Source: a virus. Taken from it: a stretch of 64,000 nt of DNA. Numbering within the stretch: position 1 is the first letter of the stretch; each line of letters begins with the position of its first letter. The notes under the pieces are model-generated. The model made no database searches. It saw only the letters and a list, made by a program, of their open reading frames with translations, and was not told the origin of the DNA. The stretch lies in the IMG/VR virus record IMGVR_UViG_3300033145_000668, positions 1 to 64,000 of that record; one strand, given 5' to 3'. Below are positions 1 through 56,613 of the stretch, piece after piece. A program made the position numbers and the translations under genes.

Positions 1-49
1 GTGCTCGACTCTTAATCGAGACATCTGGGTGAGAATCCCAGTGAGTCCA
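1..49 (+). tRNA. tRNA-Lys(CTT), 5'-truncated by window edge
   Basis: Anticodon arm ctcga-CT CTT AA-tcgag; T arm ctggg-TGAGAAT-cccag. Confidence 0.8.
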
Positions 50-57
50 TTTAATAT

Positions 58-129
58 GCCGCCATAGCTCAGTGATAGAGCAACTGCCTTGTAAGCAGTA
101 GGTCGAGGGTTTGAATCCCTCTGGCTGCT
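58..129 (+). tRNA. tRNA-Thr(TGT)
   Basis: Cloverleaf; actgc-CT TGT AA-gcagt; acceptor gccgcca/tggctgc with one mismatch. Confidence 0.9.
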
Positions 130-134
130 TTTAT

Positions 135-205
135 GGAGTATTAGTCTAGTGGTAGGACTCGTGGTTTGGGACCACGGAGCGGGTGTTCGATTCATCCATA
201 CCCCA
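135..205 (+). tRNA. tRNA-Pro(TGG)
   Basis: cgtgg-TT TGG GA-ccacg; T loop TTCGATT; acceptor with A3.C70 mismatch. Confidence 0.88.
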
Positions 206-210
206 TTTAT

Positions 211-291
211 GCCTCCGTCGCATAATGGTTAGTGCACCGAGCTTGAGACTCGGGAGTTTATCTCATCTCCGTTCAATTCGGAGCGGGGGCG
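211..291 (+). tRNA. tRNA-Ser(TGA)
   Basis: ccgag-CT TGA GA-ctcgg; long variable arm; G73; 5' GCC. Confidence 0.9.
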
Positions 292-294
292 TAT

Positions 295-375
295 GCCACG
301 TTGCCGGAGCGGTTAACGGAGCAGTTTGCTAAACTGTGCCCTTGTGGTTCAGAGGTTCGAATCCTCTACGTGGCG
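295..375 (+). tRNA. tRNA-Ser(GCT)
   Basis: gcagt-TT GCT AA-actgt; long variable arm; perfect acceptor gccacgt/acgtggc; G73. Confidence 0.92.
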
Positions 376-377
376 TT

Positions 378-456
378 AGATGTAGATTATGATGTTGACA
401 TAATATCGGAACTTAGTTATGTTAAAATGTCGTTCCTGAAAAAATAATCTATGTCT
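378..456 (+). ncRNA. Candidate structured ncRNA (three-way junction with complementary loops) inside tRNA array
   Basis: 13-bp closing stem 378-390/444-456, hairpins 391-407 and 408-436, loop GACAT complementary to ATGTC. Confidence 0.5.
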
Positions 457-463
457 TTATAAT

Positions 464-535
464 GTTGGTTGTAGCATATTGGTAATGCGTGCGGTTGTGA
501 TCTGTGAGAAGAGAGTTCGATTCTCTCCTTCCAAT
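464..535 (+). tRNA. tRNA-His(GTG), weakly paired, possibly degenerate
   Basis: tgcgg-TT GTG AT-ctgtg; canonical D and T arms; encoded G-1; two U.U mismatches in acceptor. Confidence 0.72.
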
Positions 536-565
536 CTTTAAATAAAATATTTAGGAAATATTTAA

Positions 566-641
566 TGGGATGTAGCTCAGTCTGTTCAGAGCGCTGGTCT
601 GATACGCCAGAGGTTCGCAGGTTAGAATCCTGTCATCCCAA
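566..641 (+). tRNA. tRNA-Ile(GAT)
   Basis: ctggt-CT GAT AC-gccag; acceptor tgggatg/catccca. Confidence 0.88.
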
Positions 642-646
642 TTTAA

Positions 647-719
647 TGGCTTGTAGCATAGTGTTTAATGCACCCGTCTTATGAGCGGGAGACCGTGGGT
701 TAAAATCCTACCAAGCCAA
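647..719 (+). tRNA. tRNA-Ile(TAT)
   Basis: cccgt-CT TAT GA-gcggg; acceptor tggcttg/caagcca. Confidence 0.85.
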
Positions 720-728
720 TATTAAAAA

Positions 729-1244
729 ATGAAATGTAAAAAATGTAAAAAAGAACACGATGGAACTTTTGGTTCCGGAAAATTTTGTAGTCGTAGTTGT
801 GCTAATAGTAGAACTAGAAATAAATCATATAAAAATAAAATGAGTAAAATAATGAAAAATGTAAAACCTAAAAAAAGAATTAAAATAAAATTTAGTAAAG
901 AAAGAATAGAAATCCATAAAAAAGGAATACAAAAATATCATAAAAATAAAGAAGAACTAATTAAGAAAACATTATATTTTAATGATTGGCCATCTGAATC
1001 AATGAAAATTAGAGAATTCAAAAAAGAAAAAGGAAATAAATGTGAAGTATGTGGATTTGAATATTCAAATAAAGATGGAAAAGGTCCATTTGAAGTTCAT
1101 CATAAAGACGGAAATAATAAAAATAATAACTATGAAAATCTACAAATGATATGTTTAATTTGTCATTGGAAAACTGATAATTATAGATTTAGAGGAAGAA
1201 GCAATAAAAAATTAAAGACCTGTGGTGCACTGGATAGCACATGA
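729..1244 (+). CDS. HNH homing endonuclease with N-terminal zinc finger
   Basis: CEVCG...EVHHKDGNNKNN..ENL..ICLICH HNH motif; N-terminal CKKC..FCSRSC. Confidence 0.88.
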   Translation: MKCKKCKKEHDGTFGSGKFCSRSCANSRTRNKSYKNKMSKIMKNVKPKKRIKIKFSKERIEIHKKGIQKYHKNKEELIKKTLYFNDWPSESMKIREFKKEKGNKCEVCGFEYSNKDGKGPFEVHHKDGNNKNNNYENLQMICLICHWKTDNYRFRGRSNKKLKTCGALDST

Positions 1245-1287
1245 CTCTTCTAAAGTCGAGAAGTGGGTTCGATTCCCTCCAGGTCTG
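1216..1287 (+). tRNA. tRNA-Arg(TCT)
   Basis: tgact-CT TCT AA-agtcg; acceptor agacctg/caggtct; A20. Confidence 0.88.
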
Positions 1288-1292
1288 TTCAT

Positions 1293-1367
1293 GGCTCCGT
1301 AGTTCAGTCTGCGCAGAACACTTGCCTTTTAAGCAAGATGTCGGGGGTTCGAATCCCTCCGGGGTCA
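1293..1367 (+). tRNA. tRNA-Lys(TTT)
   Basis: cttgc-CT TTT AA-gcaag; T loop TTCGAAT. Confidence 0.9.
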
Positions 1368-1370
1368 TAA

Positions 1371-1445
1371 GGTTCCATAGCTCAGCCTGTTCAGAGCATC
1401 CGGTTTTTACCCGGAGTGTCGGGGATTAGAATTCCTCTGGGACCA
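1371..1445 (+). tRNA. tRNA-Lys(TTT), second copy with variant loop
   Basis: tccgg-TT TTT AC-ccgga; acceptor ggttcca/tgggacc. Confidence 0.82.
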
Positions 1446-1448
1446 TAA

Positions 1449-1520
1449 GGAACATCAGTATAGTGGGCATTACATCCGACTGAAGCTCGGAAGAGGGAAG
1501 TCCGATTCTTCCATGTTCCA
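1449..1520 (+). tRNA. tRNA-Phe(GAA)
   Basis: tccga-CT GAA GC-tcgga; acceptor ggaacat/atgttcc. Confidence 0.87.
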
Positions 1521-1523
1521 TAA

Positions 1524-1595
1524 GTGCCTATAGTTCACTGAATAGAACGCAAGGTTTCGACCCTTGAGAATTTGGTTTAATTCCAAATAGGCATG
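1524..1595 (+). tRNA. tRNA-Arg(TCG)
   Basis: caagg-TT TCG AC-ccttg; acceptor gtgccta/taggcat. Confidence 0.87.
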
Positions 1596-1675: not shown

Positions 1676-1748
1676 GAGCGATTGGTGTAATGGTTTAGCA
1701 CGACAGTTTTACATGCTGTAGACATGAGTTTGATTCTCTTATCGCTCA
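1676..1748 (+). tRNA. tRNA-Val(TAC)
   Basis: acagt-TT TAC AT-gctgt; acceptor gagcgat/atcgctc. Confidence 0.87.
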
Positions 1749-1752
1749 TTCA

Positions 1753-1825
1753 GGGAATATAGTATAATGGCCTAGTCCGTTCGGTTCCAACCCGAGAAGT
1801 CTCAGTTCGATTCTGGGTATTCCCA
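1753..1825 (+). tRNA. tRNA-Trp(CCA)
   Basis: ttcgg-TT CCA AC-ccgag; acceptor gggaata/tattccc. Confidence 0.87.
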
Positions 1826-2004: not shown

Positions 2005-3537
2005 ATGACATGGACAAACGATTTAATAAAAAAAGAAGTAATTGTTTCAAGCGAAAAGAAATCCCAAGACCAAGGAACTTCTAATAATTCTTTATGGAAT
2101 GCAATGAAAGACGAAACTAATTATACTAAAACTGAAAATAATGCTGACACATTAAAATCAACTCAATCTAAAGTATTAGATTTATTCTCAATGGGTGGAG
2201 CGTTAAGAAAAAGAGATAATGAAGAAGTTAAAAAAATGATTTCATTAGCGCTTGCTGAAGATTTTAATTTAGGTTTAAAATGCTTATTCTATTTAAGAGA
2301 CGTTAGAGGTGGACAAGGAGAAAGAAAAACATTTAGAACTGGATTAAAAGTTTTATCAGATTATTACCCAACAGAAACAAAAAAGATACTCGAATTAATT
2401 CCAGAATATGGAAGATGGGATGATATATTATCTTTAGAAGGAATAGATATTAGAGATTTTTTATTACATAAATTATTAGATGATTGTTCAACAAGCAAGC
2501 CGTCGTTATTAGCAAAATGGTTACCGTCTGAAAATACTTCATCTAAAAAAACTAAGATGGTAGCAAGAGCATTAAGAAAATATTTAGGATTTAGTTCTAT
2601 AAAATATAGAAAAATGTTAAGTTCTGTTAGACATAATTTAAAATTAGTAGAATCTAAAATGTCTCAAAATAAATGGGGATTTATAAATTATTCTTCAGTT
2701 CCATCTAAAGCTAATTTAAAATATAAAGATGCTTTTATAAAACATGATACGGAAAGATATGCTAAATTTTTAGAAGCAGTAGATAAAGGAGAAGCAAAAA
2801 TAAATACTTCTACTATATTTCCTTATGAAATTGTTAAAAAAGCAAGAGAAGACAATAATCAAACATTAGAAGTATTATGGAAAAACTTACCTAATTATGT
2901 AAGAGAAGATGATAAAGGTATTGTAGTTGCAGATGTTTCTGGAAGTATGTATGGAATGCCAATGGATGTTTCAGTAAGTTTAGCAATGTATTTTGCAGAA
3001 AGAAATGTCGGACCTTTTGCAAATAAGTTTATAACTTTTTCAGGAAACCCATCTTTACAAGATATTACTGGAATTACTTTAAAGCAAAAAATTAACAATT
3101 TAGAAAGAGCCCACTGGCAAATGAATACTGATTTACAAGCAGTATTCGATTTAGTATTAAATACTGCTAAACAAAATAATGTACCACAAGAAGATTTACC
3201 AAAAACTATTTATATAGTTTCAGATATGGAATTTGATGAAGCTAATGGTGGCGCTGGGGGATTTAGAACTGTAGCTAATCCAAGATTAACTAATTTTGAA
3301 GCTATAAAACAAAAATATGCAAGTGCTGGATATGAAATGCCTACATTAGTATTTTGGAATGTAGATTCGAGAAATAATAATGTTCCGGTAAAACAAAATG
3401 AAGACGGTGTAATTTTAGTTAGCGGATGTTCTCCTTCTATTTTTAAAATGGTAATGGAAAAAACAACACCATATAAATTTATGTTGAACGCGTTGAACGG
3501 TGAACGATATAAGTTGGTAGATGAGAAGTTAAAATGA
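2005..3537 (+). CDS. DUF2828 / TROVE (Ro60-like) protein with C-terminal vWA domain
   Basis: TEN..., RDVRGGQGER, YGRWDD, AKWLPSE motifs; MIDAS DVSGSM; SDMEFD; VFWNV. Confidence 0.88.
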   Translation: MTWTNDLIKKEVIVSSEKKSQDQGTSNNSLWNAMKDETNYTKTENNADTLKSTQSKVLDLFSMGGALRKRDNEEVKKMISLALAEDFNLGLKCLFYLRDVRGGQGERKTFRTGLKVLSDYYPTETKKILELIPEYGRWDDILSLEGIDIRDFLLHKLLDDCSTSKPSLLAKWLPSENTSSKKTKMVARALRKYLGFSSIKYRKMLSSVRHNLKLVESKMSQNKWGFINYSSVPSKANLKYKDAFIKHDTERYAKFLEAVDKGEAKINTSTIFPYEIVKKAREDNNQTLEVLWKNLPNYVREDDKGIVVADVSGSMYGMPMDVSVSLAMYFAERNVGPFANKFITFSGNPSLQDITGITLKQKINNLERAHWQMNTDLQAVFDLVLNTAKQNNVPQEDLPKTIYIVSDMEFDEANGGAGGFRTVANPRLTNFEAIKQKYASAGYEMPTLVFWNVDSRNNNVPVKQNEDGVILVSGCSPSIFKMVMEKTTPYKFMLNALNGERYKLVDEKLK

Positions 3538-5685: not shown

Positions 5686-6357
5686 ATGACGAGCGGTGTA
5701 TATGAAAGAACTGAAGAGAACAAAACAAACATTAGTAAAGGAAGAAAAAAAATATTTAAACGCGGTTATATAAATCCGTTTAAAAATAAATCACATTCTG
5801 CCGAGTCAAAAAACAGAATGAGTAAAAGTAGAAAAAAACTATTTGAGTGTGGATATATACATCCAATGAAAGGTAAACATATTTCTGAATCTCATAAAAA
5901 AAGTGTAAGTAAAAAACAAAAAGAAAACCCTTCTAGATATTGGAAAAACAAAAAAAGAAAACCATTTTCTGATGAATGGAAAAAAAATATCAGTAAAATC
6001 AGAAAAGGAAAAACTTATATGGAAATATATGGAGAAAAGCGAACAAAAGAAATTAAAGAACTTAAAAGAAATATCAGACTAAAACAAATTAAAGAAAATA
6101 ATAGTAGTTTACAAATAGGTAAACACGAACAACAAATTTTAGATGAACTAGAACTATCTAATAATATAAAAATAATTAGACAATATACGACGTGTGGTTA
6201 TATCGTTGATGGATATATTGACGAATTAAACTTATGTATTGAAGTCGATGAGAATTTTCATAAATATCAACAAGAAAAAGATAAAATCAGAGAAAATAAT
6301 ATTAAAGAAGAGTTAAAATGTAAATTTTTGAGAATAAAAGACACATATGATTTCTAA
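5686..6357 (+). CDS. Homing endonuclease, NUMOD3-like repeats + DUF559/Vsr-like nuclease
   Basis: HSAESKNRMS and GKHISESHKK repeats; VDGY..ELNLCIEVDE..H..D..RE. Confidence 0.8.
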   Translation: MTSGVYERTEENKTNISKGRKKIFKRGYINPFKNKSHSAESKNRMSKSRKKLFECGYIHPMKGKHISESHKKSVSKKQKENPSRYWKNKKRKPFSDEWKKNISKIRKGKTYMEIYGEKRTKEIKELKRNIRLKQIKENNSSLQIGKHEQQILDELELSNNIKIIRQYTTCGYIVDGYIDELNLCIEVDENFHKYQQEKDKIRENNIKEELKCKFLRIKDTYDF

Positions 6358-8072: not shown

Positions 8073-8148
8073 GATTAATCAGGATAATATATTCAGATAA
8101 CCTTCTATATATTTTAACTACATATTGGGAACATCTATTTATAAAATA

Positions 8149-8976
8149 ATGATAAAAAATAAATGTAAAAGATGTGGTAAAATTTTTGAAGTTTATCCAT
8201 CCCAACGAAAAAAATATTGTTCAAGAGAATGTTTTTCTAAAAAATTTCAAGTTAAATGTATTATTTGTGGTAAAATAAGAGAATTTAGTTTTATTAAATC
8301 TAAGAAAAGAAAATGTTGTTCTAGAAAATGTGCAAATAAATTAAATTCTATAAGAATGATGGGTGAAAACCATCCAAGATATAGAGAAAGAGTTAAATTA
8401 AAATGTATTATATGCGGTGATAACTTTGAAGTTATACAATCTCAAAAAAATCAAAAATGTTGTTCGAGAAAATGTTCAAGTAAATTACAAGGTGAAAATA
8501 GAAAAAAAGAAAAAATTAAACTTGAATGTGTTATTTGCGGCAAGACATTTAAAGTTAATCTGGCAGTTTCTAAGTATAAAAAATATTGTTCTAGAAAATG
8601 TGTAGAAATATTTCAATCTATCAATAGGAAAGGAAAATCATATGAAGAAATGTATGGAAAAGAAAAAACTAAAGAAATAAAAATGAAACAAAGGATAAGT
8701 GCAATAAATTATATTAATAATCACAGTAAAGGAATACAGCCACATTTAGGAAGAAACGAAAAGGACTTTCTTGACGAAGTAGAACTATCCAATAATATAA
8801 AATTAGTCAGACAATATGAGGTATTAGGTTACTTCGTTGATGGTTATTGTGAAGAATTGAATATAGTAGTAGAAATAGATGAAAGACCTAAAACCCATGA
8901 AAGAGATATCGAACGAGAAAATAATATTATAAAAGAATTAAATTGTAAATTTCTAAGAATAAGAGACGACTTCTAA
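8149..8976 (+). CDS. Homing endonuclease, four zinc-finger repeats + DUF559/Vsr-like nuclease
   Basis: 4x C..CG..F....CSR.C; FVDGYCEELNIVVEIDE; paralog of 5686-6357. Confidence 0.8.
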   Translation: MIKNKCKRCGKIFEVYPSQRKKYCSRECFSKKFQVKCIICGKIREFSFIKSKKRKCCSRKCANKLNSIRMMGENHPRYRERVKLKCIICGDNFEVIQSQKNQKCCSRKCSSKLQGENRKKEKIKLECVICGKTFKVNLAVSKYKKYCSRKCVEIFQSINRKGKSYEEMYGKEKTKEIKMKQRISAINYINNHSKGIQPHLGRNEKDFLDEVELSNNIKLVRQYEVLGYFVDGYCEELNIVVEIDERPKTHERDIERENNIIKELNCKFLRIRDDF

Positions 8977-15567: not shown

Positions 15568-16026
15568 ATGACAGTTAACCCATTAGGTTTTGTTCAAGTT
15601 AGTGATTTTGGAAACCCAAAAGTAGTTACAGGAGGAGCGAGAGAAGTTATTTCTGGAGGTCAATTTGTTAGCGCATCAGGTGCTACAGGAGTTGTATCAT
15701 CAGGAGCAAGCTCATTCTTAGAAACTGACATCACATTTTATGTAAGTGATGATGCTGAAAGTTTTGTAGGAATTGCACTTCAAAACACTGCTTCAGGTGC
15801 TAAAGTTGCTATTGCAATGGACGGTGCTATGATTGTACCATGTACAGGGTCTGTTTTTGCAGGAAGAATCGTTAAATCAGTTGCATCAGAAGATGCAGTA
15901 GCTAATTTAGGTTCTCAAATTGTTCCAGCTGATGCTGAAGATGCATCAATTGCAGGAAACATTGCAGGAAGAGCTCTAACAGCAGGTGCAAGTGGTGGTT
16001 TCGCGGTGGTTAGTTTTGGAATTTAA
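15568..16026 (+). CDS. Capsid decoration/cement protein
   Basis: G/A/S-rich, FVGIAL and AGRALT patterns, between scaffold and MCP. Confidence 0.7.
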   Translation: MTVNPLGFVQVSDFGNPKVVTGGAREVISGGQFVSASGATGVVSSGASSFLETDITFYVSDDAESFVGIALQNTASGAKVAIAMDGAMIVPCTGSVFAGRIVKSVASEDAVANLGSQIVPADAEDASIAGNIAGRALTAGASGGFAVVSFGI

Positions 16027-16027
16027 G

Positions 16028-16888
16028 ATGACAGAAATGAAACATATTACAGAATTACTTAACACTGGGACTGCAACAGAAGGTTCACTTTTGATTGTAA
16101 AGAAAATTCACGACAAATTAGTAGAAGAAGTTGATAAGAGACTAATTCCAAGAGACCAAGCAGCTTTAATTATTGGACCATCAGGTATACCTGGGTCTAG
16201 TGTTGATGTTGACAGAGAAGACCCTAATTCATTAGCAATTAGAGAAATCGCTGAAGGTGCAGACATTTATATCGATAACCAAACATACGACAGTGTTAAT
16301 ATCAAACCGCTTAAATACGGTGTAGGTATTAGAATCACTAGAGAAATGATGGAAGATGGTAAATGGAATTTACTTGCTAGAAATATTACAACAGCAGGTA
16401 AAAGATTTGCAGAAAACGAAACAAGCTTAATTATAACGCAACTTGACTCAGCAGGAACAACTAACTCAGGAGGTTCGGCACTAACAGTAGCAGACATCAC
16501 AACAATGATGTATGATGTTGAAAACAGTGACTATATACCTTCAACGATGTTAATTGGTACAGAAGTATTAAATGATTTAAGAAACATTGATACATTTGTT
16601 GAAGCTGATAAACTTGGAAGTCGAGAAATGCTAGAAACAGGTTTTGTTGGAAGAATATACGGTATGAACTGTATGAGATTCTCAACAAATGCAGCTCCAT
16701 CATCTACTTATGCTAAATATGCATATGTATTCGATAAGAGTGAAGCATACTACATTGTAGAAAAAAGACCAATTACTGTTGAAAGATTTGAATTACATTC
16801 AAATGATATGTCAGCAGCTAGTATAACTCAAAGAATCGCGGTTAAGCTAATTAGAGCTAACGCAGTTTCTAAAACAACTACAAATTAA
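16028..16888 (+). CDS. Major capsid protein (HK97 fold)
   Basis: IAEGA.I, KYG..I.ITREMMED, GRIYGM motifs; 286 aa from ATG 16028. Confidence 0.88.
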   Translation: MTEMKHITELLNTGTATEGSLLIVKKIHDKLVEEVDKRLIPRDQAALIIGPSGIPGSSVDVDREDPNSLAIREIAEGADIYIDNQTYDSVNIKPLKYGVGIRITREMMEDGKWNLLARNITTAGKRFAENETSLIITQLDSAGTTNSGGSALTVADITTMMYDVENSDYIPSTMLIGTEVLNDLRNIDTFVEADKLGSREMLETGFVGRIYGMNCMRFSTNAAPSSTYAKYAYVFDKSEAYYIVEKRPITVERFELHSNDMSAASITQRIAVKLIRANAVSKTTTN

Positions 16889-54174: not shown

Positions 54175-56613
54175 TTAAAATAGCGTCTTCTGACCGCTTA
54201 ATTTTAATTTTGCGATTGCTACAATTTTATCCAATTCTTTCATTCTACCCAATACTTCATAAATTGGTTTTGCTTTTTGATATATATTTTTTATTACCAT
54301 TGCCGACCAATCTATTTTAATATTTTTATCTTTAAACTGTGTTTCATCTTCGAAGCACATAACATCGGACACTTGTCCTGTAATATATAATAACTTAAAT
54401 TTATTTCCTTCTCTTAATCTTAAACCTAAATTTTCATTGCTCCACTTCACTCCTCTAATAACCGGACGATTCGCTGGTTTAGTTGTTGTATGTCCTTCTT
54501 TATCTGTTCGTGTAATAGTATATTTTTCAATTGCTTTATTTAACTTAGAAGGAATAGCAATATCATTTAACTCTATTTTTCTCATAATCATATCATCGAT
54601 AGTTTTACAAACATAATCATTTAATAAATTAAAATCATCTTGCATTAATAACAATCTAAATAACTCCTTTTGAAAAACTTTTGACATTGGAGCAGTGTCG
54701 CTTCTCCTAACTTGCATTCCGCACGCTTTAATTTTATCACATTCTTCTCCATCATCCCAAGTTGTTCTTAAAACATATCTTTTCTTAGTTTGAATAAAAG
54801 CTTTTTTAGCAAACTTTTCGAATTCCATATTAATAGTACTCTTCGGCATACCTAAATCTTCTATTACAAACTTTTCAATTTGGTCGTTAATTAATTTTTG
54901 TAATCTTTTTCCTTCTACAATTGGGTCTTTATCTTTAGGAATTACAAATCCAATAGAATCAGTATCAGACATAACATGAGTATATCCTGTATCTTCTACA
55001 ACTATATCTCTAGCTTTACAAATTAATTGTCGAGCATTAGCTGTTACTGCATTTGCTAATCGCAAATCATTCATTCTAAATCCATTAGATGCGAATACAC
55101 CCCAAATACTATTGATAACGATTTTAATAGCAAACATTTTATCTCGTAAATCCTGTCCTCCAGTTCCTTGCATTTGTTCTTTTAATTCTTTTTTTAGTTG
55201 TAGCAAATCATCAATTACGCTTGGCATAATTCCTTGTCCTTGTTGGTCGACTTTTAAACCGGTTTCAATATTAACAATTATTCCATCGTCGCTAATTTTT
55301 TCTTTACTTAAATTAAAAGTTTTAATAATATTTGGATACAATCCACTATAATCAAAAAATACTACATTATCATATAATCCAGGATTAGTAAAAACATAAG
55401 CTCCTTGAAGATGTTCGTCTTCTCCTCGTTCTCTAAAAATAGGTTTAGTAGGAAATGATTTTTGAGTATTATATTTTTTTAATATCTTAGTATCGTGAAT
55501 TCTCGACATATAAAAACAATCAGTAATATTTCTTACTCCAGCAAAGTTTCTAATTTGTTCAAACAAATCTAATAATTTACACTTCTCATTAATTCTAACT
55601 ACTAATTCAACATCTTTTATATTATAATAAATCAGTTCTTCTAGGTTTTCCCTCCACGATTTGCTCATATCATGCACTGGTAACTTCTGGTCACCGAGCT
55701 CAGTATCAGCAACGCTATTTAAAGAATAACTCGCTAATTCTCCAAAGTGTAACTGTCTGTACATTTTTAAAGAATCTGCTAATACTAATCCTAATATTTT
55801 TATTTCTCCCTTCATCATCTTTGCTACTCTTGCATTAAAATCAATTCCGTGCCACATTACTGTGTCGAGCGGATTAGTAAAAGAACATAACTTTTCTACA
55901 TCAATCTCTAAATGTTCCAGACGAGCATATAAATATCCTATATCGAATCCAATGTTCCATGCCGTTAATATGTCACCGTCTTCACAATTAAGATAAAAAA
56001 GAAATTGTCTTAACATTTGGTCTTCATTATTAAAATAGTAAATAGTTTTATCGCCGTCTTTTTTAATTACACTTTCAATATCTTCTCTCCAAACATATGT
56101 AACATATTTATTACTAAAACTATCGTGCGCCGTAATGCAAGTTATTTTTTCAACAGGATTATCATTATCAGGAAATCCTTTATCGCAAGTTGTTTCAATA
56201 TCAAATGTTATTGTTTTATATTTTGTCGACTCAACCTTCTCAACTTTATCTATCATATATCGCATATCAATAGATAAATCTAATTCGTATGTATTATCTA
56301 AATTACCTCGTAAGTCTGTAATATATTTTTTAAAAAATAATTGTTCTTTAGGATGATTAAATATAATCTTATAAACCGGTTCTCCGTAAATATCATTAGG
56401 ACCAAATCCAGACATTTGAGCATAAGTTGGAAGTATAAAGTTTTTACTTTTTAGGAGAGTATCGTTAACATAACAATATGGCTTAAAATCAGTTACTCGT
56501 CTAACTTCTTTTGTTCCGTCTTTATTTCTAATAAATAAAAGTATAGTTGGCACACCATTAATAATCTTAGAACTAATATCATATAATCCAATATACGTGT
56601 CTCGTTGCGTCAT
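54175..56613 (-). CDS. polB: Family B DNA polymerase
   Basis: Exo FDIET, WN.GFD..YL, YN.KDV; Pol DYSGLYP, K...NS.WG, SDTDS, KKRY. Confidence 0.95.
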   Translation of the reverse strand: MTQRDTYIGLYDISSKIINGVPTILLFIRNKDGTKEVRRVTDFKPYCYVNDTLLKSKNFILPTYAQMSGFGPNDIYGEPVYKIIFNHPKEQLFFKKYITDLRGNLDNTYELDLSIDMRYMIDKVEKVESTKYKTITFDIETTCDKGFPDNDNPVEKITCITAHDSFSNKYVTYVWREDIESVIKKDGDKTIYYFNNEDQMLRQFLFYLNCEDGDILTAWNIGFDIGYLYARLEHLEIDVEKLCSFTNPLDTVMWHGIDFNARVAKMMKGEIKILGLVLADSLKMYRQLHFGELASYSLNSVADTELGDQKLPVHDMSKSWRENLEELIYYNIKDVELVVRINEKCKLLDLFEQIRNFAGVRNITDCFYMSRIHDTKILKKYNTQKSFPTKPIFRERGEDEHLQGAYVFTNPGLYDNVVFFDYSGLYPNIIKTFNLSKEKISDDGIIVNIETGLKVDQQGQGIMPSVIDDLLQLKKELKEQMQGTGGQDLRDKMFAIKIVINSIWGVFASNGFRMNDLRLANAVTANARQLICKARDIVVEDTGYTHVMSDTDSIGFVIPKDKDPIVEGKRLQKLINDQIEKFVIEDLGMPKSTINMEFEKFAKKAFIQTKKRYVLRTTWDDGEECDKIKACGMQVRRSDTAPMSKVFQKELFRLLLMQDDFNLLNDYVCKTIDDMIMRKIELNDIAIPSKLNKAIEKYTITRTDKEGHTTTKPANRPVIRGVKWSNENLGLRLREGNKFKLLYITGQVSDVMCFEDETQFKDKNIKIDWSAMVIKNIYQKAKPIYEVLGRMKELDKIVAIAKLKLSGQKTLF

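Follow-up and report, generated by a model that had tools for sequence, protein, structure and literature searches.

The tRNA array and its elbow pairs

The pair that joins position 19 of the D-loop to position 56 of the T-loop at the elbow of transfer RNA (tRNA) is taught as a nearly invariant G19:C56, and it is the face on which the ribosome, RNase P, RNase Z and the CCA-adding enzyme dock. Here we describe a viral array of tRNA genes in which this pair has been exchanged, in matched fashion, in about a third of the members. The array is found at the left end of the stretch of DNA that was analysed, referred to throughout as the window, which comprises the first 64 kilobases (kb; positions 1 to 64,000) of a virus contig from IMG/VR (IMGVR_UViG_3300033145_000668). 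The contig spans 95,174 nucleotides, has a guanine-plus-cytosine (GC) content of 29.3% and is assigned a CheckV completeness of 68%. The array encompasses 15 complete genes together with a truncated tRNA-Lys(CUU) at the contig start. The genes and their loops were delineated with ARAGORN, and consensus positions were taken from the Rfam tRNA covariance model (RF00005). The members are as follows, with the window position of individual nucleotides in brackets.

1-49, plus strand: 3' part of tRNA-Lys(CUU), its 5' part cut by the contig start; Rfam 30.4 bits over model positions 23-71
58-129, plus strand: tRNA-Thr(UGU); G18 (74), A19 (75), U55 (111), U56 (112), giving A19:U56; D-loop AGUGAUA, T-loop UUUGAAU; 68.9 bits
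134-536, plus strand: tRNA-Pro(UGG), Ser(UGA), Ser(GCU) and His(GUG); GG with UUC, canonical G19:C56
566-641, plus strand: tRNA-Ile(GAU); G18 (584), U19 (585), A56 (624), giving U19:A56; D-loop AGUCUGUUCA, T-loop UUAGAAU; 64.2 bits
647-719, plus strand: tRNA-Ile(UAU); G18 (663), U19 (664), A56 (702), giving U19:A56; D-loop AGUGUUUA, T-loop UUAAAAU; 66.3 bits
729-1244, plus strand: open reading frame for an HNH endonuclease of 171 residues inside the array; PHROG HNH families, E = 9e-9
1216-1287, plus strand: tRNA-Arg(UCU), canonical elbow; its first 29 nucleotides are the last 29 of the HNH reading frame
1292-1368, plus strand: tRNA-Lys(UUU) no. 1; D-loop AGUCUGCGCA, without GG; T-loop UUCGAAU, C56
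1371-1445, plus strand: tRNA-Lys(UUU) no. 2; G18 (1389), U19 (1390), A56 (1428), giving U19:A56; D-loop AGCCUGUUCA, T-loop UUAGAAU; 59.1 bits
1449-1520, plus strand: tRNA-Phe(GAA); GG kept; T-loop UCCGAUU, C55 (1502)
1524-1595, plus strand: tRNA-Arg(UCG); G18 (1540), A19 (1541), U56 (1578), giving A19:U56; D-loop ACUGAAUA, T-loop UUUAAUU; 55.7 bits
1599-1672, plus strand: tRNA-Gln(UUG), canonical elbow
1676-1748, plus strand: tRNA-Val(UAC); G19 (1693), U56 (1731), a G.U wobble; GG in the D-loop, T-loop UUUGAUU
1753-1825, plus strand: tRNA-Trp(CCA), canonical elbow

All 15 complete genes score between 47.8 and 68.9 bits against RF00005, for which the gathering score is 29. Each of them has a T-loop of seven nucleotides with U at the first loop position (U54) and A at the fifth (A58), and the stems, the anticodon arms and loops, U8 and A14 are intact throughout.

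Matched exchange of positions 19 and 56 in the window

Five of the tRNAs carry an exchanged Watson-Crick pair, namely A19:U56 in Thr(UGU) and Arg(UCG) and U19:A56 in Ile(GAU), Ile(UAU) and the second Lys(UUU). A first-pass annotation of the sequence had claimed this rewiring along with a G19.U56 pair in Val(UAC), and both hold: the six loop sequences that it quoted are found at the genes named, and alignment to the covariance model places the changed bases on consensus positions 19 and 56. For Arg(UCG) the register of the D-loop in the model is uncertain, with A occupying position 19 in either register. Six tRNAs thus lack the G19:C56 of RF00005, and all six retain a Watson-Crick or wobble pair at these positions. 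G18 and U55 are present in the five exchanged tRNAs and in Val; within the array, the exceptions to these two nucleotides are Phe, with C55, the truncated Lys(CUU), with G55, and the first Lys(UUU), whose register is ambiguous.

Alignment of the window tRNAs with MAFFT placed G18 and G19 in three different registers and was not used; the loop parsing of ARAGORN, a fixed rule and a permutation were applied instead. The rule assigned position 19 blind to the T-loop, by taking the first G with three to five bases before it and two to four after it, and with GG preferred. By this rule, positions 19 and 56 form a Watson-Crick pair in 13 of the 15 window tRNAs, a level of pairing that recurs in only 25 of 200,000 permutations of the T-loops. 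Chance or misalignment as the source of the exchanges was rejected on this permutation test.

Departures from the canonical elbow go beyond the exchanged pairs. Of the 16 tRNAs that were parsed in the contig, 9 have a non-canonical elbow of some kind, a share that no other contig reaches when the 17 viral contigs with eight or more tRNAs are compared; the UUC motif is missing from 8 of 16 window T-loops. The second Lys(UUU) additionally has A53:U61. In the first Lys(UUU) the D-loop contains G-C-G, such that the 18/19 register is ambiguous; the model proposes U18 and G19 at low posterior, and G18 may be separated from G19 by an additional base. G-N-G D-loops with C56 resembling that of this tRNA also occur in loci L028, L043 and L163. 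The UCC T-loop of Phe, in which C55 replaces the universal U55, is shared with eight further viral tRNAs, with L092, L112, L163 and L211 among the carriers. The T-loop of the truncated Lys(CUU), UGAGAAU (30-36), combines A56, from which the first-pass annotation had predicted U19, with a G55 that it did not mention. As covariations elsewhere couple G55 with A18 and A56 with U19, the missing D-loop should read A18-U19 rather than G18-U19.

Conservation and further change in a related virus

The one close viral relative that was compared is a 27.8-kb contig (G001:C14) that was binned with "Candidatus Pacearchaeota". Its major capsid protein is 78% identical to that of the window virus, it shares with the latter a CCA-adding enzyme, Pth2 and RtcB (59-71% identity), and it has a tRNA array at its end. 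The orthologues of Ile(GAU) (L144:10535-10609) and Ile(UAU) (L144:10455-10530) have the same U19:A56 pair as in the window. The acceptor and T stems of these two tRNAs have diverged from those of the window by compensatory changes, with the exchange retained.

Other elbows of the relative have altered at the neighbouring contact. Its Arg(UCG) (L144:9383-9453, minus strand) has the D-loop AAUAAUA and the T-loop UGUAAAU, that is, A18-A19 with G55-U56, so that both contacts that the D-loop makes with the T-loop have been exchanged at once and A19:U56 is kept. In its Thr(UGU), Lys(UUU) and Tyr, the last an ARAGORN call at lowered threshold, AG in the D-loop accompanies UGC in the T-loop, which sets A18 with G55 and keeps G19:C56; Ser(GCU) on a neighbouring contig end likewise has AG with UGC. 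The elbow state changes repeatedly in this virus family, and every time the change is matched. A Val tRNA in a 74%-related locus (L058) is canonical. No tRNAs were found in the IMG/VR relatives recovered through the capsid protein (L049-L057), and a scan of IMG/VR with a pattern for the Ile(GAU) anticodon arm returned two contigs, both unrelated.

The array of the relative also houses an archaeal RNase P RNA (RF00373) of 224 nucleotides, flanked by tRNA-Phe and tRNA-Arg(UCG), at G001:C14:26457-26680 on the minus strand (L144:9458-9681, minus strand). It scores 95.3 bits against a gathering score of 84 (E = 1.7e-27) and retains the conserved regions, with two peripheral helices deleted. A separate, cellular copy is present in the same bin (C8:141147-141495). 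The literature searched held no precedent for an RNase P RNA encoded by a virus, and no such RNA was found in the 95-kb contig of the window or in 12 other array-bearing loci.

The elbow across viruses and cells

The wider distribution of these states was surveyed in 461 unique parsed tRNAs, and covariation was counted on the 427 that have U54, U55 and A58. Most of the comparison viral arrays were gathered through a neighbouring gene of the DUF2828 family, considered further below; they are therefore a non-random sample, and related sequences within it do not represent independent events. The counts are as follows.

Contig of the window: 16 tRNAs, 5 Watson-Crick 19:56 exchanges, 9 non-canonical elbows
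Relative (G001 virus): 21 tRNAs, 2 exchanges, 5 non-canonical
Other viral or metagenomic contigs, through the DUF2828 gene: 283 tRNAs, 12 exchanges, 50 non-canonical
HGTV-1: 36 tRNAs, 0 exchanges, 4 non-canonical
T5: 24 tRNAs, 1 exchange, 1 non-canonical
Cellular, three DPANN genomes: 81 tRNAs, 3 exchanges, 3 non-canonical

Across the 427 tRNAs the covariation of 19 and 56 is essentially perfect. C56 is accompanied by GG in 389 of 399 cases; U56 by G-A in 14 and by GG in 4, with no other partner; A56 by G-U in 8 of 9; and G56, seen once, by G-C. The single A56 exception is an aberrant gene at 79.9 kb of the window's own contig. This lone tRNA-like gene (G000:C1:79859-79931), called as Gln(CUG), has a D-loop of three nucleotides and the T-loop UUAAAUU, and scores 46.8 bits against the Rfam model.

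The window stands out by the density of its exchanges and not by their kind, and represents an extreme case rather than a unique one. The 5 of 16 in the window compare with 13 of 343 in other viruses (12 on the DUF2828 contigs and one in T5; Fisher p = 0.0005), and PA5oct together with a Bacillus phage is wholly canonical (0 of 31). Among viral contigs the non-canonical fraction drops as GC content rises (Spearman -0.50, p = 0.04). When contigs with at least eight tRNAs are considered, 12 of 18 exchanges fall in contigs of 28-32% GC, the others being in L119, L022 and T5 at 40-43% GC.

The first-pass annotation had made its claim depend on the tRNAs of the host lineage being less variable at 19:56, and on this point the outcome is divided. 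The same exchanges do occur in 3 of the 81 tRNAs of the DPANN genomes, whereas their density in the window is about tenfold higher (Fisher p = 0.003). The kind of change is therefore not specific to viruses: its rate in the likely host lineage (3 of 81) is the same low one as in viruses other than this one (13 of 343). All three cellular cases are intron-bearing, and comprise, in a Pacearchaeota genome, a tRNA(CAU) with U19:A56 and, in a Nanoarchaeota genome, two tRNAs with A19:U56, namely Thr(CGU) and Thr(GGU). A search of 201 genomes of the phylum of G003 for the D-arm of its A19 tRNA-Thr in exact form gave a match in just one; that exchange is therefore species-specific rather than lineage-wide, and the cellular exchanges are sporadic.

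A second covariation, in which AG in the D-loop meets UGC in the T-loop (A18 with G55), is found in 19 of 380 viral tRNAs and in none of the 81 cellular DPANN tRNAs (Fisher p = 0.03). Such sites include L219:48474-48544 and L220:1351-1425 and 1625-1698, as well as others in L066, L070, L075, L095, L112, L119, L144 and L145, and the count includes three tRNAs of the isolated haloarchaeal virus HGTV-1.

Virus identity and likely host

The isolated viruses that come closest in the major capsid protein (15986-16888) are haloarchaeal tailed viruses, with HGTV-1 first, and the same holds for the family B DNA polymerase (54175-56613, minus strand). Since both proteins are closest to this group, the contig probably belongs to an uncultured, AT-rich, tailed archaeal virus. 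Hundreds of sequences from uncultured sources are related to the capsid protein, at 60-88% identity. In species-representative genomes the top match to this protein, at 78%, is in a "Candidatus Pacearchaeota" bin, with weaker ones in Woesearchaeota, Nanoarchaeota and some bacterial bins; other named relatives are found in bins of Heimdallarchaeaceae and Promethearchaeota.

Binning and composition, the only grounds for a host assignment, make a DPANN host likely. Viral contigs and their bins agree in GC content (28.0 versus 27.5%, and 33.8 versus 33.5%). An intron-containing tRNA-Ile(UAU) is present on cellular contigs of the DPANN bins G001 and G003 (L148, L198), and the virus encodes an Ile(UAU) too. 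The latter is a rare way of reading AUA, and its presence in the DPANN bins fits the host assignment. Identity between viral and DPANN tRNAs ranges from 64 to 81%, which neither proves nor excludes recent capture from a host. Archaeal RNase P RNA was found in all three DPANN genomes (G001, G002, G003). Trm56 (PF01994), in contrast to four of four archaeal controls that were positive, was not found in these three genomes, which are incomplete, nor in the virus.

Neighbouring genes and tRNA-handling machinery

Directly downstream of the array lies a single large gene.

2005-3537, plus strand: DUF2828/DUF7788 protein; PHROG 850 ("RNA-binding protein"), E = 1.7e-149; Pfam PF11443 and PF25043

Its VWA-like (Ro60/TROVE-like) match is weak and sub-threshold, with 17.7 bits for PF13519 (VWA_2) against a cut-off of 27. 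DUF2828 homologues in many other viral contigs likewise adjoin tRNA arrays; two such contigs, L031 and L112, are bacteriophages, since they also carry a transfer-messenger RNA. A reading of part of the array as a Y RNA (YrlA, RF02553) was rejected: the match, at 1339-1397, reaches 21.9 bits against a gathering score of 69 and spans two tRNA genes, whose anticodon arms are complete.

Further along the contig (G000:C1:88206-95174; L225:10207-17174) are genes for a class II CCA-adding enzyme, with a PolyA_pol head and an HD domain, an ATP-dependent ligase, Thg1, Pth2 and RtcB, the last of these cut by the contig end. As judged from the predicted proteins, they make up a tRNA maturation and repair kit, and homing endonucleases are interspersed among them. 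Additional endonuclease reading frames of the NUMOD3/DUF559 type surround the terminase (5686-6357 and 8125-8976).

Why the elbow pair changes

The first-pass annotation took the retention of a pair of altered identity to mean that these tRNAs are functional and under selection. That view is upheld by the matched 19:56 changes in the window and in the set of 427 tRNAs, by conservation of the exchanges in the relative, and by a suppressor note for a comparable tRNA of phage T5 that is described below. It is because the two loops have changed in matched fashion that the tRNAs look functional. The exchanged tRNAs thus appear to be working virus-encoded genes, and the conclusion that selection keeps a Watson-Crick pair at 19:56 is supported.

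The best reading of the exchanges, to which we give a probability of about one half, is that they represent structure-preserving, compensatory and nearly neutral change that AT pressure favours, in a lineage that yielded no Trm56. Recognition of the elbow takes place mainly via the flat face of the 19:56 pair and the backbone (PMC4810234). Elbow readers, among them the L1 stalk, L5, RNase P, RNase Z and the CCA-adding enzyme, would mostly dock on these features and not on the bases, and for that reason the L-shape would be expected to persist, and to function, with any Watson-Crick pair at 19:56. The virus is strongly biased to AT (29% GC), which may then push the identity of the pair toward A:U and U:A, and the G19.U56 pair of Val(UAC) may be a captured intermediate on the way from G:C to A:U. 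The methylated C56 (Cm56) that is a hallmark of archaea is made by a C-specific enzyme, Trm56 (PMC4810234, PMC7912444), and the exchange could be permitted where this enzyme, the one base-specific archaeal reader of C56, was not found. Some of the exchanges, such as those of Thr and of the Ile/Met-like D and T arms, may derive already exchanged from tRNAs of the host lineage. The practical consequences would be a weaker outer pair with two hydrogen bonds, the absence of Cm56 and loss of the UUC motif from the T-loop.

A number of observations weigh against this account. Cells of similar GC content (27-35%) have exchanges in 3 of 81 tRNAs, compared with 5 of 16 in the window, and because they have so many fewer, AT pressure alone is insufficient to explain the density. 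The exchanged tRNAs are not richer in AT than the other tRNAs of the window. U19:A56 is the commonest exchanged state here, even though two transversions are required to reach it and no wobble pair can bridge them. All four of the tRNAs that serve the most-used codons (Lys AAA/G, Ile AUA, Ile AUU/C and Phe UUU/C) are non-canonical; this association with codon demand is not significant (Mann-Whitney p = 0.19), and as a trend it runs counter to the expectation for little-used genes under relaxed constraint. Finally, the host assignment comes from binning and composition only and the three genomes are incomplete, such that the missing Trm56 is weak evidence.

One alternative is adaptive escape, which the first-pass annotation had also raised, and which we regard as possible if rather unlikely. 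The exchanges, together with C55 in Phe and G55-A56 in Lys(CUU), would remove the U54-U55-C56 motif or alter the elbow, and thereby spare the viral tRNAs from a nuclease, toxin or modifying enzyme, of host or competitor, that reads either of them. A cutter of this type has been published: the CRISPR-associated Schlafen nuclease Cash is described as cleaving tRNA mainly in the UUC motif of the T-loop, 5' of U55 and with UC after the cut, and as losing its activity upon single changes of U54 or U55, in passages that do not give the outcome of changing position 56 by itself (PMC13462974). Phage tRNAs are known to escape anticodon nucleases through loop mutations (PMC10264068). The loss of UUC from half of the window T-loops, the maturation and repair kit with its class II CCA-adding enzyme, Thg1, Pth2 and RtcB, a density of exchanges some ten times that of the host lineage at similar GC content and their location on tRNAs for the most-used codons are all in keeping with escape. 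Set against it are the seven tRNAs of the array that retain a canonical elbow, the lack of significance of the codon-demand trend, and the cellular tRNAs with the same exchanges. To our knowledge, no defence nuclease that reads the T-loop or elbow is known for this host lineage, and none was found in the putative hosts, where no search aimed at one was made. A bolder proposal is that an AT-rich and probably DPANN-infecting virus family has systematically redesigned both 19:56 and 18:55, with a focus on tRNAs of the most-used codons, in step with its own tRNA machinery (the RNase P RNA of the relative, the class II CCA-adding enzyme, Thg1, RtcB and the Ro-like protein), so as to hold a pool that survives attack on the T-loop or elbow, or shut-off of host tRNAs; this we consider doubtful.

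It is improbable that the rewired elbows define a private tRNA pool, one that co-evolves with elbow-reading machinery of the virus so that its members are favoured in processing or protection, or are distinguished from those of the host. The archaeal-type RNase P RNA within the array of G001:C14, the bacterial/eukaryotic-type (class II) CCA-adding enzyme, Thg1 and RtcB of the window virus, the Ro60-like DUF2828 protein that adjoins the array, and the 18% of non-canonical elbows in DUF2828-adjacent arrays of other contigs could be accommodated by such a pool. However, the contig of the window yielded no RNase P RNA, half of its array is canonical, and the arrays were sampled through the DUF2828 gene, so that the association with it may reflect that sampling; moreover, RNase P docks by stacking, which should not discriminate among Watson-Crick pairs. 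Still less credible, to the point of being very improbable, is that the genes are decaying or non-translational, either pseudogenes or RNAs with a role other than decoding. The further departures in the array (C55, the G-C-G D-loop and A53:U61), the weak Y-RNA-like match and the adjacent Ro-like gene might hint at this, but the changes are compensatory and not random, the stems, anticodon loops and U54/A58 are intact with high Rfam scores, the exchanged state is conserved in the relative and T5 offers a functional precedent.

An array with a third of its tRNAs exchanged, and always in matched fashion, amounts to a natural mutagenesis experiment, and suggests that pairing itself, not base identity, is what the elbow-docking machines need. 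These tRNAs also provide ready substrates for asking whether the elbow offers a way of escape from defence nucleases that cut the T-loop or from modification specific to C56, and whether archaeal viral tRNAs are insulated from host enzymes. Even if the exchanges are merely compensatory drift, they set bounds on the conservation of a "universal" pair in viruses and DPANN archaea.

Comparison with known systems

The window tRNAs share with the canonical elongator elbow (RF00005; PMC4810234, PMC7912444) the cloverleaf, G18, U55, U54-A58 and a Watson-Crick pair at 19:56. They differ in that the exchanged pair is A:U or U:A and not G:C, which in archaea excludes Cm56. The mitochondrial and otherwise degenerate tRNAs (e.g. 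PMC2777451) likewise combine AT pressure with departures at "invariant" elbow nucleotides. However, they commonly lose the contact or shrink their loops, whereas in the window loop sizes and the pair are kept. Phage tRNAs that escape defence (PMC10264068; PMC11555353) resemble those of the window insofar as viral tRNAs differ from those of the host, at positions that nucleases read in the published cases and may read here. Their changes, in contrast, are in the anticodon loop and stem, and the elbow, T-loop and D-loop go unmentioned in PMC10264068.

Among isolated viruses, HGTV-1 (Halogranum tailed virus 1, NC_021328) has the capsid protein and family B polymerase most closely related to those of the window virus. 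It shares with the window a large tRNA array interrupted by endonucleases, which are of the HNH and LAGLIDADG types in HGTV-1, and the occurrence of non-canonical elbows. It differs in that its departures (3 of 36, plus one oddly parsed T-loop) are of the A18/G55 type, AG with UGC, with no exchange at 19:56, and in its GC content of 49%.

A comparable virus-encoded elongator tRNA is tRNA-Ile1(GAU) of phage T5 (NC_005859, 28210-28286), in which the D-loop AGCGAUCUA and the T-loop UUUAAAU give A19:U56, as in Thr and Arg(UCG) of the window. Its GenBank record notes that an anticodon change makes a working suppressor, and a tRNA with A19:U56 can thus function in translation. T5 is a bacterial phage with 1 of 24 tRNAs exchanged, whereas in the window 5 of 15 are exchanged, U19:A56 is used as well, and a G.U pair is present in addition. 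No paper naming the A19-U56, U19-A56 or A18/G55 combinations was found in a search that lay outside most subscription journals, including the old T5 tRNA papers. The array therefore probably represents unusually dense exchange of 19:56, pointed to here for the first time in a probable archaeal, DPANN-associated virus and with a partial counterpart in the host lineage.

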